Of a DNA stretch of 37,934 bases, positions 1 to 6,000 are shown in pieces. The stretch's first letter is position 1. The number at the start of each line of letters is the position of its first letter. The stretch lies in the IMG/VR virus record IMGVR_UViG_2534682329_000010; one strand, 5' to 3'. Origin of the DNA: a virus. Lineage: Duplodnaviria; Heunggongvirae; Uroviricota; Caudoviricetes. The position numbers were made by a program.

Positions 1-3000
1 ATGGCTATTCAAATCTCAGTTGAAACTCTTTCCCCGATCACCCATAACCAAATCCCTGTCATTACTACCGAGCTTTTGGCACAACTTTATGGCACCGAAA
101 CTAATAACATCAAAGTGAACTATACACGCAATGCCGAGCGTTTTGTTTGTGGGAAACACTACTTCAAATTGGAAGGGGCTGAGTTGCGGGAATTTAAGAA
201 CAAGGTTACTCAAAGTAACTTAGTTGCACCGCGTACAAAGCACCTCATCCTCTGGACAGAACGCGGAGCAGCCCGTCACGCCAAAATGCTCGAAACCGAT
301 CAGGCTTGGGAAGTGTTCGAAAAACTCGAAGACTGTTATTTCAGCCAGAAACAGCCACCAGCAGCACAAAACACATCTATCGAAAATGATGGATGCGCAT
401 TACTGATCCACTTCGATAAACACGGTCAGGTAGAGTTCACGGAAAAAGTCCCCGCCGATGCGATGGTATGCACTCTTGAACGGTTCAAATTTTATCTGGA
501 GCAACACGGCTGGATCGTTGCCCGTAAAGAACAACTGGTGGAACGGTTGATGCGGTTTTAATGCATGCAAAACCCCGGATGATCACCGGGGTTAATTTTA
601 TCGAGCGTGATTGCCGCTAATCGCCATCTCTCTGATTGAGCGCAAATCCTCCAGATTATTCAGTTCATCCTTCATCTCACGCTGGCGCTGATAAATCTCG
701 TCGTTGCGTTCGACCTGTGCCTGCGCCATTGCTGCCGCCAGTTCTTCCAGTTCCGGCATTGACAGTTTCACCTGTTGATTATAGGCATCCCCCCACGCAA
801 GGGCGGTTCGTGCCGTATCGAATTTCGCTGCCATTACTACCGGATAAAGGCGAGCCAGTGAGTCGGGGCCAGCGTTCCAGGTACGTCTGTTCCATTCGAA
901 CGTGAACGGCTGCGCTTCCTGTTCTGTGCGCCATGCCTCAATTTCCCGCTTTTTGGCAGCCTTTGCCGCTGCGATAAGTTCAGGCGTGACGGTAAACGGG
1001 GCAATTTCACCCCATTTGCCGCTCTGTAACTCTTCCCAGATGAGCTGACCTGTCTGTGCTGTATCATCTTTTGTCGCTGTATACGGCAGGACTTTCTCCA
1101 TTCCCTCAAACAATACCTCACAGTTAATTGCACCTGATTCCAGATAACGTGGATTCAGAATTTGTCGTATTTCCATTTTTTATGCCACCCGCATGAATAA
1201 ACCAACATAATAAAACTTTGAACTGGCCATAATTCTGTTGTTACCGGATAACGCGACAAAACTGCCTGACTGTGGTGTTACGCTGCTGTCTGCAAGATAA
1301 AATTGCGGCGTGCTATTGCTTGTAGCAGAACTCCCCAGTACCCCCATCATGCCTATTTGACCAATTCGTGAGCCGGGCACAATCATCCCCCTGTACAGCC
1401 TTATGCTCTCATTACTTTCCGCCTCCCCCAGATACGCCCCCAGCATCAGCCCCCCAATATCAGGACTCCCCCAGCTATTGCCGGTGGAAGAGCGCAGTAC
1501 CTGTGTAAAATCATCAACCTTAAGTAACTCATTAACCCAGCTGTCAGGCAGGGTTACAGGGGTGATGTTGCTGTGAATTGTTGCCGTGTAACTCTCTCCG
1601 TTTATTCCTTTAAAAATAACCTGCTTCGTTGCATTTTGCTGATTCTCCGGGGTGGTATTTGTGCGAACTTCAATATCCAGATAACCAGAAAAATTCAGTG
1701 TATCGGAGCCATTAATAATGGGGGCCTTTTTATTACCGTCGTACTGACTGACAAGATAGCGTCCTGGTGGTGTTTCACGCACCCACTGCAAAAATTCAGT
1801 CGGTCCGTTTTCGGCACTGAAATGCATTTCCTGTTCATCTGTGAACAATGCGCCAAAGCCAAACCCTCCGGGAATCGCCAGACAACCAGCAGTGCGATCA
1901 TAAATATCACTCTGAGGCTCCATTGTTGCAGATACTGCCAGCTCCAGCTCATGGCGCATGGCTTCAGGAATGTCCTGTGCCAGCAGTGAACGGGCTTTTT
2001 CTGACAGCGGAGACAGTGAAGCATTCCCGTCCTGATTAAAGCACAGAAGATTATCTGCCCGTTGCGTCAGCTCACTGATTGCCGTCAGCACATCGCTCAG
2101 CGGTTGTTTACCTGCCAGCGCGTTCATGATTGTTGTCGCAAAGTTCGGGTCATTGCCCAGCGCCGCGGCCAGCTCGTTCAGTGTGTCCAGGGCTTCCGGT
2201 GACGAGTCAACCAGTGCGGCGAGTAGTTTGCGGACAAACGCCGCGTTTGCCATCTCCAGCCCGACCGCATCGTCCGGCGGGGTTGGTGCGGTTGGCTTAC
2301 CTGTGAACGCCGGGCTGTCCAGCTGTGCTTTTGTTTTCGTCTCGTCCATGACGATTTTGACGGCTTTTGACGTGGCTGCCAGCTCTTCACTGTCGTTGTC
2401 AGTGTCACTACTGAGTTGCACCAGGCCTTTTTCTGTCGTGGTGGCGCTGGTTCCCTTCAGGTCATCAACTATCCGTTGCGCTTCATCCCTCTGCTGTTTC
2501 GATTCCCGTGCATTGTCTGCGCTCGTATCCTGACTGGCTTTAGCCTGTCGGGCATATTCAGCGGCGCTGTTTTCATGCCCGAGTGCGGAATTTGCCGCAT
2601 TTTCCGCGCTGGTTGCTGCCGAAGATGCAGCCTCTTTATGCTGACGAGCCTGTTCAGCAGCATCAACGGATTTATCCCGTGCGGCACCTGATGTCTGTGC
2701 GCTGTTTTCTGCCTCATCCGCAAAACGCTCCGCATCACTGCGGGCAATAGTCGTTGCCTCCACATCCTGCACAGTCTGCCGTGCGCTTTCTGCTGCATTA
2801 TCAGCGTGATTTTTCGCATTCTGCTCGCTTTGTGCGGCAGCTTCAGCGCTGGCTTTAGCCTCACCGGTCAGCGTTGCGGCATCAGAAAGTTTATCGACAG
2901 CTTTCTGAACGGCCTTATCGGCATCACTGGCAGCCTGCTCTGCGCGGGCCGCATCCTGCGAAGCAGATGACGCCAGTAACGCTATCTGCTTTTTATCTTC

Positions 3001-6000
3001 GGCAACGGCTTCTGCGTTCTGCTGTACATTATCCGCCAGCGTCTCGCAGTCGCTCTTAATTTGTTGCGCATCAGCGACATGTTGCCCGGCCTGTCGTTCG
3101 CTTTCCGCTGCCGCTTCCGCGCTCTGCTGCGCCTGCGCCACCATTTCCTCAAAGCGTTTCACTACATCCGGCTTTAAATCGCCTTCATCGAGGGCAGTCA
3201 GAAAGTCATTCAGTGTGCCGGGCCTGGAGTCGTCGTAAACCGAAATGTCGCCAACACAGTACTCGTCGCACCAGTCCTGCTTCAGATATACACAATATTT
3301 CCCGACCTGTGCCCCGAACGAATATTCTCCATTATTTCCTGTCACCACGTCGGCAACTGTGCGCATCACCACTTCCGGGGTGTTTACCCGGGATTTCAGA
3401 ATTATGTGGCATCCGGACATGGGGATGCCTGCGCCATCTATCAGCGCACCTGATATCACTACCATAGTTTTTCTCGCGATAAATTAAATCAGGAAAGGGT
3501 TTCCGGAGAGACGGGCCATTCAATGGCGTTATATGAGGCTTTATCAGTGACGGCACTGAAATTCATCGCCTGTAACTCCTTTGCGTAAATACGCCAGGCT
3601 TTCAGCTTTTCTTTTTCTTCATCGCTGATGATTCCCAGAAGTAAATCCGTCTTCTTATCGGATATTTCCCGTTCGGCAATCGCAGTAAGACGTGCACGCT
3701 CTGACTCCGCCTGCTGTCTGTAGTCAACAGGAACAGGAAGAACTTCACCGTCTTTGTAATACCAGCGCGCTTCTATACAAAAGCCATCCGGTAGTTCATC
3801 CACTTCCACAATGGTGAAACCTGCCGGATAAAGCCGGGATACGTCTTCCGCCATTGAATAAATAACGCCGGTTTCAGGATGTGTGCACAGCTTGTATTTC
3901 TTCGTGAATTTATCCAGTGATTCATAAAAATCCTGTCCGTCTTCACTACGGAAATACTGAATGCCTTCACCATAAGGCATTTCTTCAGGGTAATAACGCG
4001 TAACGTTTCTGAGCTCCATTATTTTCTCCCTGATTAACCTGATACAGAGCGCCATGCGCCATTTATATAAATCTGGGCCTGTTTGTAATACACACCACCG
4101 ATATTATCCGCAGAGCTACTGCCGGTTTCCTGAACCACAATACCGGACAGAGTGCAGCCAGGCGGTGCGCGGAACGTCCAGCTGAGCTCGTTCCCTCCCG
4201 GGTTGTAAAACACCTCACTGGTGTACTGAAAATTCTGCACGCCGCCTGTTTTGGTCTGGTAGCGTTCATCGAAATTGCCATAATCAGTTGGTGTTACCCG
4301 CCCTGAAACATTCACTGCCCGGTTACTTTGTAACGCGCCATTCTGAAAACGGAATACGTGCTGACCATTGGCATAAACATCCAGCAGGCCGTCACCATTC
4401 TGTTTCAGGCCGGTATCGTTATCCCCGAAAGCAATTGAGTTTCCGCCCAGCGCGTTCTGAACTCCGATACCAAGTGCACCATTGACCTGCGAACCGCCGC
4501 CAACAGACACTTTATGCGACATGGATATTTCACCCGTCCGCAGGTTAATGCTGAACGGTCGCAGTGGGCCAATATCGCCGTTTTCACCCTGGTTTTCCTG
4601 GGTGGGAATGAGATGCAGGCTCTCTTCCGAACGACGAAAAATCAGGCCAAAAGCGTCGTTGAAAATCCTCAGCGCATTAACACCACGGATTTTCAGCTCC
4701 CCGGTCATGTTGTCGCCATCACGCTGAACGGAATTTTTTGCCTTGTCCACCGTGGGTTTTAATCCGAGGTTTTCAACAGACTCATCCCTGTCTTCCACAT
4801 CCGAAAGATTCCTGTCCTGTCGCAGAAACAGGCCATCTCCGGTTGCCACCTTCAGTGTAACCTGCGCGCTTTCAGCCACTGCCAGGCGGAACTGCAGTGT
4901 GGCTGTCACACCGTTTTCCGGTTTCTCAATGGCAGCACAACTTCCGACGGCATAAAGTTCACCATCGCTGGTCAGCAGCCCCGCTTCCCTGACCGTAAAT
5001 CCCCCCACACCCTCCGGCAGTGCAAGATACGCAATAAACTGGTTTTCCTGATCAGGCGAGACCGCCAGACGTGATATAGTGCCACGATAAACTTCCCTGA
5101 CCAGAGCCGTCTGCCCTGCCTCTGGTGTGACGGCATGCCCGTTTCCATCCCCCACCACAAACCCGTCCAGCACCACCGGCACACCACCCGACGCAGACGC
5201 GGCCTCCAGTGCCTTTCCCCTGTTTGTCAGAATACTGCAATGTTTCGTGGTCACGTTATTCTCCCGCCTCAATCACCACATCAATATGCGCAGTCATCGC
5301 GCCACCAACATAAAACTGGCTCTCCTTTCCGATATCCGTATTTACGTCAATGGTGCTCAGACCGCTGCGTAAATTCTTGGCCTTAATGACCAGCGCCCTG
5401 ACCTGGCTGTAAAGCACACTGTCAGCGCCTTCCCGCAAAAACAGCTCCACACGAAAGGTGTACGGTTTTTTGCGCGGTGAATCCTGCCACCACTCTTTGA
5501 TTGCCGCCGGAACACCAACCGCACCAAGCGCCCGCAGCACTGCCCCCGCCGTTCCCCGGTGCTGATGCACATATGCCGCATCACGTAAAATTTGCCGCTT
5601 CTGCTCTTCACTCCAGTCATCCTGCCAGAAATCCACAGCAAACTCCCAGGCCAGCCACGGCAACAGATGCAACGGGCAGGTATCCGGATCCTTCACCTTT
5701 CTGACCATATCCGTATCAAGCGTCAGGATGCTTTCTGTTGTGGCCTGCTCCTGTGCCCGCTCCGGCCTGACCGCGGAAGGCGGCAGAAGTGAGCGAAATG
5801 TCTCCGCCATCATCACACCTCTTTACGCGTCACATTAACAGCGGCACAACGGGGAGCCGTACCGGTTGCCGGTTCAATATCAGCCCGGGGGCTGGACAGA
5901 ATAACCCGAGCCACACCGGTCTGTTGCAGTGCGGCGTAAATGGCGGACAGCGGCACCATGCCATTAATCCGGTTTGCCAGCCGGGTATAAGACAGCAGCG

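Follow-up and report, generated by a model that had tools for sequence, protein, structure and literature searches.

A P2 H-type and a lambda Stf-type tail-fibre module in tandem at the predicted end of a contractile-tail operon in an Escherichia coli prophage

Introduction

Where does a collar fibre of the lambda type dock on a sheathed tail? The question is raised by a four-gene cassette in the window studied here, a stretch of 37,934 nucleotides (nt) from a tailed virus of the Caudoviricetes (IMG/VR record IMGVR_UViG_2534682329_000010), in which two tail-fibre genes, each followed by the gene of a putative chaperone, occupy positions 598 to 5254. The original prediction for this locus described two consecutive modules of different ancestry, a P2 H-like fibre (here fibre 1) with a Tfa chaperone (Tfa1) and, in the same orientation, a lambda Stf-like side fibre (fibre 2) with a chaperone of its own, and proposed that both fibres are expressed together. 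Phages with two receptor-binding proteins, such as Ur-lambda, T5, DT57C and Sf14, are well known. We consider it likely that the two modules encode independent receptor-binding fibres that are folded by their own chaperones and made constitutively from a single transcript, with fibre 1 mounted on the baseplate and fibre 2 serving as an accessory fibre at the neck.

Results

Layout and intactness of the fibre genes

Positions 1 to 6800 of the window are 99.6% identical to E. coli strain NY1601, where the element is flanked by tRNA-Ser and an integrase gene on one side and by zinT on the other; as far as its sequence tells, the window is an E. coli prophage. The near-identical NY1601 prophage is annotated with a contractile tail of the P2 type (V, sheath, tube, tape measure, U, X, D, W, J and I). 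On the minus strand of the window, the P2-type baseplate genes W, J and I are followed directly by four full-length fibre and chaperone genes, and by gene content we read the block as the 3'-terminal part of the tail operon in a temperate E. coli phage whose tail is contractile and of the P2 type. Its features are the following (aa, amino acids):

5813-6718, minus strand: Baseplate_J (gpJ) gene, from a Pfam domain match
5256-5816 (PGAP start 5810), minus strand: P2 gpI-type baseplate wedge gene (PF09684 Tail_P2_I, E 2e-39)
4034-5254, minus strand: fibre 1, a P2 H-type baseplate tail fibre of 406 aa with a GTG start (PF12571; phrog_6859; phrog_454)
3489-4019, minus strand: Tfa1, a Caudo_TAP tail-fibre assembly chaperone of 176 aa (PF02413, E 2e-21; phrog_136, 2-177 of 178; Mu U, 5yvq_B, E 8e-16)
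1180-3465, minus strand: fibre 2, a lambda Stf-type fibre of 761 aa (PF08400, E 1e-59; Phage_fiber_2 repeat; phrog_2636)
598-1176, minus strand: DUF4376 protein of 192 aa, putative chaperone or cap for fibre 2 (PF14301, E 1e-15; phrog_1141, 4-190 of 194)
571-593, no strand assigned: GC-rich hairpin, probable bidirectional terminator closing the tail operon (terminator scan; -15.8 kcal/mol, z -2.05)

Both fibre and chaperone pairs were thus confirmed as predicted, each protein by its own family profile. All four genes span these profiles from end to end and PGAP annotates all four as intact in NY1601, so that none of them looks like a degraded remnant, which had been named as one of the observations that would overturn the prediction. 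The genes are tightly packed, with gaps of 1 nt between gpI and fibre 1, 14 nt between fibre 1 and Tfa1, 23 nt between Tfa1 and fibre 2 and 3 nt between fibre 2 and the DUF4376 gene, and no overlaps. We place the start of Tfa1 at the ATG at 4019 and not at the in-frame upstream ATG at 4055, because phrog_136 aligns only from residue 12-13 of the longer open reading frame (ORF) onwards and a Shine-Dalgarno sequence (GGAGaaaata) precedes the ATG at 4019; PGAP places the same start in NY1601. With no overlaps and with Tfa1 starting at 4019, the translational coupling claimed for both pairs was overstated; coupling is plausible across the 1- and 3-nt gaps.

A promoter scan of positions 1 to 7100 returned no hit on the coding strand, and the terminator-like matches on that strand were weak and lay within coding sequence. 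The hairpin at 571-593 is situated 4 nt past the DUF4376 stop codon, where the DUF4376 and ORF6N genes converge; on the minus strand, UUUUG comes next. Searches for an inversion system were likewise negative: no gix-like site was found at three or fewer mismatches, inverted repeats in positions 1 to 7000 did not exceed chance level, tblastn in the window with a Gin query (run with no positive control) gave nothing better than E 4, and the annotation of the NY1601 prophage lists the integrase as its sole recombinase. This agrees with the earlier statement that neither an invertase nor inverted crossover sites can be seen. Given the tight packing, the lack of an internal promoter or terminator and the lack of a switch, constitutive co-expression is the best reading, and the two fibres would be made together from one transcript, as had been proposed.

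The modules could instead be alternative host-range determinants between which a DNA rearrangement switches. Phages of the Mu, P1 and e14 types, which have related Tfa proteins, commonly carry invertible fibre segments, and Mu G/Gin, P1 C/Cin and e14 P/Pin resemble the present locus in that two sets of tip and Tfa end a myovirus tail operon, with a Tfa related to Mu U. In those segments, however, the two sets lie in opposite orientation, share a constant N-terminal exon and are accompanied by a serine invertase, whereas the window holds four complete genes on one strand, each with its own start, and an invertible host-range segment was rejected, as the searches described above returned neither an invertase nor crossover sites. 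The window does contain two ORF6N anti-repressor paralogues in inverted orientation (1-561, plus strand; 26874-27455, minus strand), which are 80% identical over 550 nt and 91.5% identical over the last 316 nt. This 0.55-kb inverted repeat encloses all of the lysis, head and tail genes (about 26 kb), but homologous recombination between its arms would invert the entire late region without swapping one fibre for the other; it is not a fibre switch. We regard a switch between the modules as hardly credible.

A conserved P2 H-type fibre with its chaperone

Module 1 consists of fibre 1 and Tfa1. One domain of fibre 1 is needed for what follows:

4847-5248, minus strand: N-terminal tail-collar (baseplate-anchor) domain of fibre 1 (PF12571, residues 9-142 of the 412-aa ORF)

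The anchor matches PF12571 over profile positions 3-140 of 150 (E 3e-33; 115 bits, cut-off 23). The C-terminal part of the protein is P2 H-like (phrog_6859, phrog_454) and aligns with phrog_6859 up to the last residues of the profile; sequence matches in the PDB were to Mu S, S16 gp37 and the C-terminus of a 'short tail fiber'. Fibre 1 has the position of a gpH-type fibre, directly after gpJ and gpI, with sheath and tube annotated upstream in NY1601, and Tfa1 combines its PF02413 match with a position immediately 3' of fibre 1, as a Caudo_TAP chaperone does. The P2 gpH/gpG pair shares with module 1 the gene order W-J-I-H-G, the PF12571 anchor, the H-like C-terminal segment and a Caudo_TAP gene directly downstream, and by sequence and synteny module 1 is assigned to this type. 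The fibre of the window is shorter than P2 H, at 406 aa, and is devoid of the Stf-like shaft repeats of P2 H; P2 is not known to have a second fibre module following G.

The N-terminus of fibre 1 goes with the tail. In prophages with the same P2-type tail, the anchor and the baseplate genes are about 94% identical to those of the window. Compared with the phages phiP27, Rac-SA53 and pPE4, which carry the same four genes on other tails (see below), similarity starts only at aa 149-176, just past the PF12571 domain. The anchor of fibre 1 thus appears tied to the tail type, and from this co-variation of the N-terminal 150 aa or so we predict that fibre 1 is physically attached to the baseplate wedge and triggers contraction.

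The tip of fibre 1, in turn, is by database comparison highly conserved: the C-terminal 258 aa have more than 1,400 relatives, the best 120 of which are 86-100% identical. In prophages with the same tail type, blastn finds no match over precisely the fibre 1 tip and the first 126 or so codons of Tfa1 (3641 to 4085 or 4338), between flanks that are 87-94% identical. Positions 3641-4338 mark an exchange unit made up of the tip and the N-terminal domain of its cognate chaperone. The two have been replaced together, as expected for a cognate pair, and Tfa1 in this respect behaves like other Caudo_TAP proteins, whose fibre-specific part co-varies with the fibre tip.

A lambda Stf-type fibre with a rare tip and a DUF4376 protein

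Module 2 consists of fibre 2 and the DUF4376 protein. Three regions of fibre 2 are distinguished (AF2, AlphaFold2):

3067-3462, minus strand: N-terminal collar domain of fibre 2 (StfN), with beta-sandwich, short helix, linker and start of the coiled coil (phmmer, AF2, Foldseek, hhalign)
2323-2442, minus strand: Phage_fiber_2 repeat in the fibre 2 shaft (PF03406, residues 342-381, E 1e-14)
1183-1914, minus strand: C-terminal receptor-binding region of fibre 2, approximately aa 518-761, a rare variant

The PF08400 match of fibre 2 covers profile positions 3-134 of 134 (200 bits against a cut-off of 26.6), and its C-terminus was aligned with homologues down to the last residue. Behind the collar domain, fibre 2 has the layout of an Stf protein, namely a linker and the onset of a helix (in the AF2 model), a long, alanine-rich coiled coil and then the shaft motif SSPEALDTLNELAAALGNDPNFATT with the Phage_fiber_2 repeat. 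The motif aligns to fibre chains in the PDB, and we take it to be common to lambda Stf and fibre 2. Stf from Ur-lambda resembles fibre 2 in its homologous collar domain (44-46% identity, TM 0.84), its linker and its coiled coil, and in being accessory to a primary receptor-binding protein. Ur-lambda differs in being a siphovirus, in using a Caudo_TAP chaperone (Tfa) in place of a DUF4376 protein, and in having a T4 gp37-like, OmpC-binding tip that is unrelated to the corresponding domain of fibre 2.

For the C-terminal 280 aa of fibre 2 we found 53 database relatives, the best 59% identical. In none of the related loci does the receptor-binding domain have a match at the level of DNA, although the neighbouring DUF4376 gene is 80-89% identical there; by these comparisons the tip is rare and diversifying. 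A domain like it (58-60% identity) is carried on PF08400 scaffolds in some Escherichia/E. albertii prophages (P0001/P0005) and on PF12571 scaffolds in others (P0003/P0004). At the level of sequence, the shared receptor-binding domain is direct evidence that tips are swapped between Stf and H fibre types. The different ancestry originally claimed for the two modules therefore stands for the anchors (PF12571 and PF08400) and for the chaperones (PF02413 and PF14301) but does not extend to the tips, which are mosaic, the fibre 2 domain occurring on both scaffolds.

The last gene of the cassette, immediately 3' of the fibre 2 gene, matches PF14301 with 58 bits (cut-off 25), in the position of a DUF4376 chaperone. 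No relative of this protein with a solved structure was found. DUF4376 proteins of the Alteromonas phages V22 (gp27) and A5 (gp9) have been shown experimentally to be fibre chaperones, which are needed for, or bind, the fibre tip (PMC7289586, PMC10579305). As in module 2, each of them (about 190-240 aa) is encoded directly downstream of its fibre (V22 gp26/gp27, A5 gp8/gp9), whereas the fibres and hosts are unrelated and homology is confined to the DUF4376 domain. By analogy, the most likely mechanism is that the DUF4376 protein acts as a chaperone or transient cap that folds the fibre 2 tip. One further family, phrog_11571, matches both the N-terminal part of Tfa1 (residues 13-104 with profile positions 1-92) and the DUF4376 part of the last gene (residues 52-177 with profile positions 84-209), which points to hybrid or modular chaperones in which a Tfa-type N-terminal domain is joined to a DUF4376 C-terminal domain. 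Overall, module 2 has the domains of lambda Stf and departs from it in two points of context, the contractile tail and a chaperone that is not a Caudo_TAP protein, so that fibre 2 is best described as an Stf-type fibre in an XM1-like (myovirus) setting.

Recurrence of the cassette on unrelated tails

The arrangement had been put forward as noteworthy; in fact the cassette recurs, and phiP27, Rac-SA53 and numerous E. coli genomes already contain it. A fibre, a Caudo_TAP protein, an StfN fibre and a DUF4376 protein follow one another in phiP27 (L54-L57), Rac-SA53 (tail1-tail4) and the 'Actinobacillus' phage pPE4 (gp67-gp70), in three ompW-integrated prophages that share the P2-type tail, and in all four loci from a single-protein scan with one genome per species. 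A probe for the Tfa-StfN junction matched 186 of 5,426 complete E. coli genomes; of 40 rows sampled at even spacing, 27 spanned the junction with both genes annotated, which extrapolates to about 120 genomes. The four-gene layout is real, intact and largely ordinary. A literature search returned no paper describing or testing this dual cassette.

In the Stx2e phage phiP27 (NC_003356), the four genes lie in the same order at the end of a contractile-tail operon, beside the att site, with tblastn identities of 81% for the DUF4376 protein, 73% for StfN and 77% for the shaft and tip of fibre 1. phiP27 differs in its Mu-type baseplate and tail, in another N-terminus of fibre 1 and in an Stf protein of only 490 aa, the receptor-binding domain of which is 35% identical. 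Rac-SA53 and pPE4 carry the same cassette, with StfN 89-91% identical and, in Rac-SA53, Tfa1 85% identical, on a tail and baseplate of a third, unrelated type; the Rac-SA53 Stf protein has 1061 aa. Tails were compared by tblastn of 19 window proteins with intact translations against phiP27, Rac-SA53 and pPE4. The queries were ORF6N, the four cassette proteins, the proteins of baseplate, tape measure, tube and sheath, gpV and two hypothetical proteins encoded upstream of gpV; eight head and neck queries were set aside. Significant matches were essentially limited to the four cassette proteins, the exception among tail proteins being a match of 29 residues between gpV and phiP27 (E 8e-5).

Across these three tail types, StfN and the start of the coiled coil (residues 2-224) are 73-91% identical. 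The StfN domains of contractile tails form a distinct subfamily, with 73-94% identity among members compared to about 45% to lambda. Since StfN is conserved across tails that share nothing else, its docking partner should be either structurally generic or carried inside the cassette itself.

It could also be that fibre 2 and the DUF4376 protein are passenger genes from lambdoid phages that are not assembled into the virion and persist as a recombination reservoir or by hitch-hiking. The StfN domains of isolated phages do come overwhelmingly from lambdoid and other siphoviruses, and a sheathed tail does not offer the lambda docking site as such. Decayed copies point in the same direction: in several genomes the Stf gene is deleted and a 5'-truncated DUF4376 pseudogene abuts Tfa beside tRNA-Ser, as in E. 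coli O166:H15 JNE21-009 (locus L005, 4883-5596; also hits H79-H86), where the YmfQ gene is a pseudogene as well. These loci look like natural variants without fibre 2 in a decaying Mu-type prophage. In the window, however, both genes have their full length and lie in the operon with narrow gaps, and the cassette has kept its order and intact ORFs on tails of three unrelated types and in some 120 genomes. The good conservation of the contractile-tail StfN subfamily argues for purifying selection in this context, and diversification of the fibre 2 tip is what is expected of a receptor-binding protein in use. Passenger genes are therefore an improbable explanation, and incorporation of both fibres into the virion is the reading we retain.

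Collar fold and docking site of fibre 2

StfN of fibre 2 matches residues 1-94 of Ur-lambda Stf (9e7m) by phmmer (E 2e-18). An AF2 model of residues 1-135 (predicted local distance difference test score, pLDDT, 75) contains six beta-strands and a short helix, then a linker that is disordered (92-101) and a long helix from residue 99, which is the published layout of StfN (PMC12617516). Searched against 350,542 PDB chains with Foldseek, the model matched only Ur-lambda StfN (E 9e-8, TM 0.84) and XM1 gp40 (7kjk, E 1e-6) at E 1e-3 or better; weaker matches were to the Bxb1 tail-tip chain 9d93_Ka and to the neck fibre of the cyanophage A-1(L). A full-length phmmer match to XM1 gp40 (E 6e-9) was discarded as evidence, as it rests mostly on low-complexity coiled coil. 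With the domain alone phmmer was weak, and the link to XM1 was therefore re-tested by family profile and by fold, both of which support it: hhalign of a profile of ten StfN domains with the N-terminal domain of XM1 gp40 gave 93% probability (E 3e-7). StfN is, as a remote relative, homologous to that domain, which at Pfam thresholds is not a member of PF08400.

The two structures place the fold differently. In Ur-lambda, twelve StfN domains form a collar at the junction between the gpV tube and the gpM ring and carry four trimeric fibres on flexible linkers; these side fibres bind OmpC and make adsorption 10-30 fold faster while plating is unchanged (PMC12617516). In XM1, six gp40 trimers bind the neck through their N-terminal domain, between the connector and the tail terminator (PMC10457771). 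XM1 gp40 (7KJK) is like fibre 2 in its N-terminal Ig-like domain of the same fold, its trimeric stalk and the contractile tail that it decorates, but the two are only about 24-27% identical, and for the E. coli fibre 2 a neck position is a prediction. A dodecameric collar at gpV/gpM of a non-contractile tail does not apply to the window, as its tail is of the contractile kind and the NY1601 prophage has no annotated homologue of gpV or gpM of lambda. With the lambda site at the tube-tip junction buried on a sheathed tail, and with the XM1 and A-1(L) precedents, the neck is our best guess, and fibre 2 is by analogy probably a neck or collar fibre and not a baseplate fibre.

Two proteins encoded at 13671-14940, with the gpV spike gene on one side and the head-tail attachment gene on the other, occupy the position expected for neck or tail-completion proteins. 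The first (189 aa) has only a sub-threshold match to Mu Gp37 (E 0.09) and the second (227 aa) has no Pfam match; taken with the following gene, the candidate neck proteins (13671-14240, 14257-14940 and 14962-15339) have Pfam matches that are weak at best. The proteins of 13671-14940 are candidate docking partners for a neck collar.

Fibre 2 may instead dock distally while both fibres are part of the virion, either at the periphery of the baseplate or on the conserved shaft of fibre 1 or Tfa1, which would give a branched fibre. StfN always travels with the fibre 1 shaft and tip and Tfa1 as one block of DNA, which a partner inside the cassette would explain, and its strongest homologue, lambda StfN, sits at the tail tip (PMC12617516). 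On the other hand, the lambda collar grips rings of the tube fold (gpV/gpM), which are covered by sheath and baseplate in a contractile tail, and both myovirus structures with this fold have it at the neck (PMC10457771). No StfN ring is known to assemble on another fibre. Distal docking is thus unlikely, if less so than the passenger explanation.

Other loci in the window

The head module (window positions 15000-22200, approximately) comprises a fusion of ClpP protease and capsid protein (15720-17810), a portal protein of the lambda family (17767-19278) and a TerL of 705 aa (19502-21619). The NY1601 head is of the lambda C/D/E type and unlike that of the window, despite the 99.6% identical tail and fibres, which places a mosaic joint near 15 kb. 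Among the complete E. coli genomes in the collection, none matched the window from end to end.

A pair of pertussis-like AB5 toxin genes lies at 24706-25849 on the minus strand (A, 24706-25458, PF02917 Pertussis_S1, E 2e-17; B, 25436-25849, PF02918, E 2e-6), in a patch of low GC content (0.36-0.41) with lysis genes on one side and the immunity region on the other. The pair is comparable to eplBA of Rac-SA53; like the window, Rac-SA53 encodes, away from the cassette, an anti-repressor as well as a toxin of the pertussis-like type. Directly upstream of the second ORF6N gene, a C4 antisense RNA (RF01695, 76 bits) and isrK (RF01394, 74 bits) were found at 27490-27678 on the minus strand; c4 RNA and ant together are identified by these matches as a control module like immI of P1/P7. 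The first ORF6N copy starts at position 1, so that its upstream region falls outside the window. In the early region, a sok antitoxin RNA (RF01794, 121 bits; 30506-30681, minus strand) indicates a hok/sok-type toxin-antitoxin locus.

Discussion

Our preferred interpretation is a contractile tail with two fibres that divide the work. The tail-type-specific collar domain of fibre 1 would plug into the gpI/gpJ wedge, Tfa1, of the Mu U type, would fold its P2 H-like tip, and fibre 1, with this conserved tip, would make the baseplate contact that triggers contraction. Fibre 2 would be built from StfN (about 95 residues), a flexible linker, a trimeric coiled coil, the conserved shaft motif and the variable receptor-binding domain, which the DUF4376 chaperone would fold or cap. 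Its StfN domains may oligomerise as a ring around the tail axis, most likely at the neck as in XM1, and fibre 2 would then be the accessory, fast-evolving fibre of first contact.

Several observations weigh against this interpretation. The strong homologue, lambda StfN, is located at the tail tip and not at the neck, and the link to XM1 is remote (24-27% identity; domain-only phmmer E 0.2). The literature that we found describes no neck fibres on phiP27-like or P2-like E. coli phages. Modelling of the fibre 2 receptor-binding domain reached no confident structure. The integrase is frameshifted in NY1601, the nearest complete relative, so that at least the NY1601 copy may be an inactive phage. 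Finally, the side fibres of Ur-lambda raise the rate of adsorption and not the host range (PMC12617516), which also bears on the broader receptor range suggested in the original prediction.

Uncharacterised examples of the layout are already public in phiP27, Rac-SA53 and numerous E. coli genomes, and the window adds an instance with a rare fibre 2 tip. Between unrelated contractile tails, the cassette seems to be transferred as one block. It is possible, though we hold this tentatively and with more doubt than conviction, that shaft and tip of fibre 1, together with Tfa, the StfN fibre and the DUF4376 protein, are a portable host-recognition cassette independent of tail type, and that fibre 2 is mounted by its lambda-type collar domain on contractile tails at a site other than that of lambda, be it the neck, as a whisker-like fibre of first contact, or, as a branched fibre, fibre 1. 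If true, this would explain why StfN is 73-94% identical across P2-, Mu- and Rac-type tails with no other detectable shared tail protein. In that case the collar formed by StfN would be a general adaptor for rings of the tube fold, able to carry receptor-binding domains between siphoviruses and myoviruses. A conserved primary fibre combined with a hypervariable accessory fibre and its small generic chaperone may serve as a template for host-range engineering of temperate myoviruses and tailocins.

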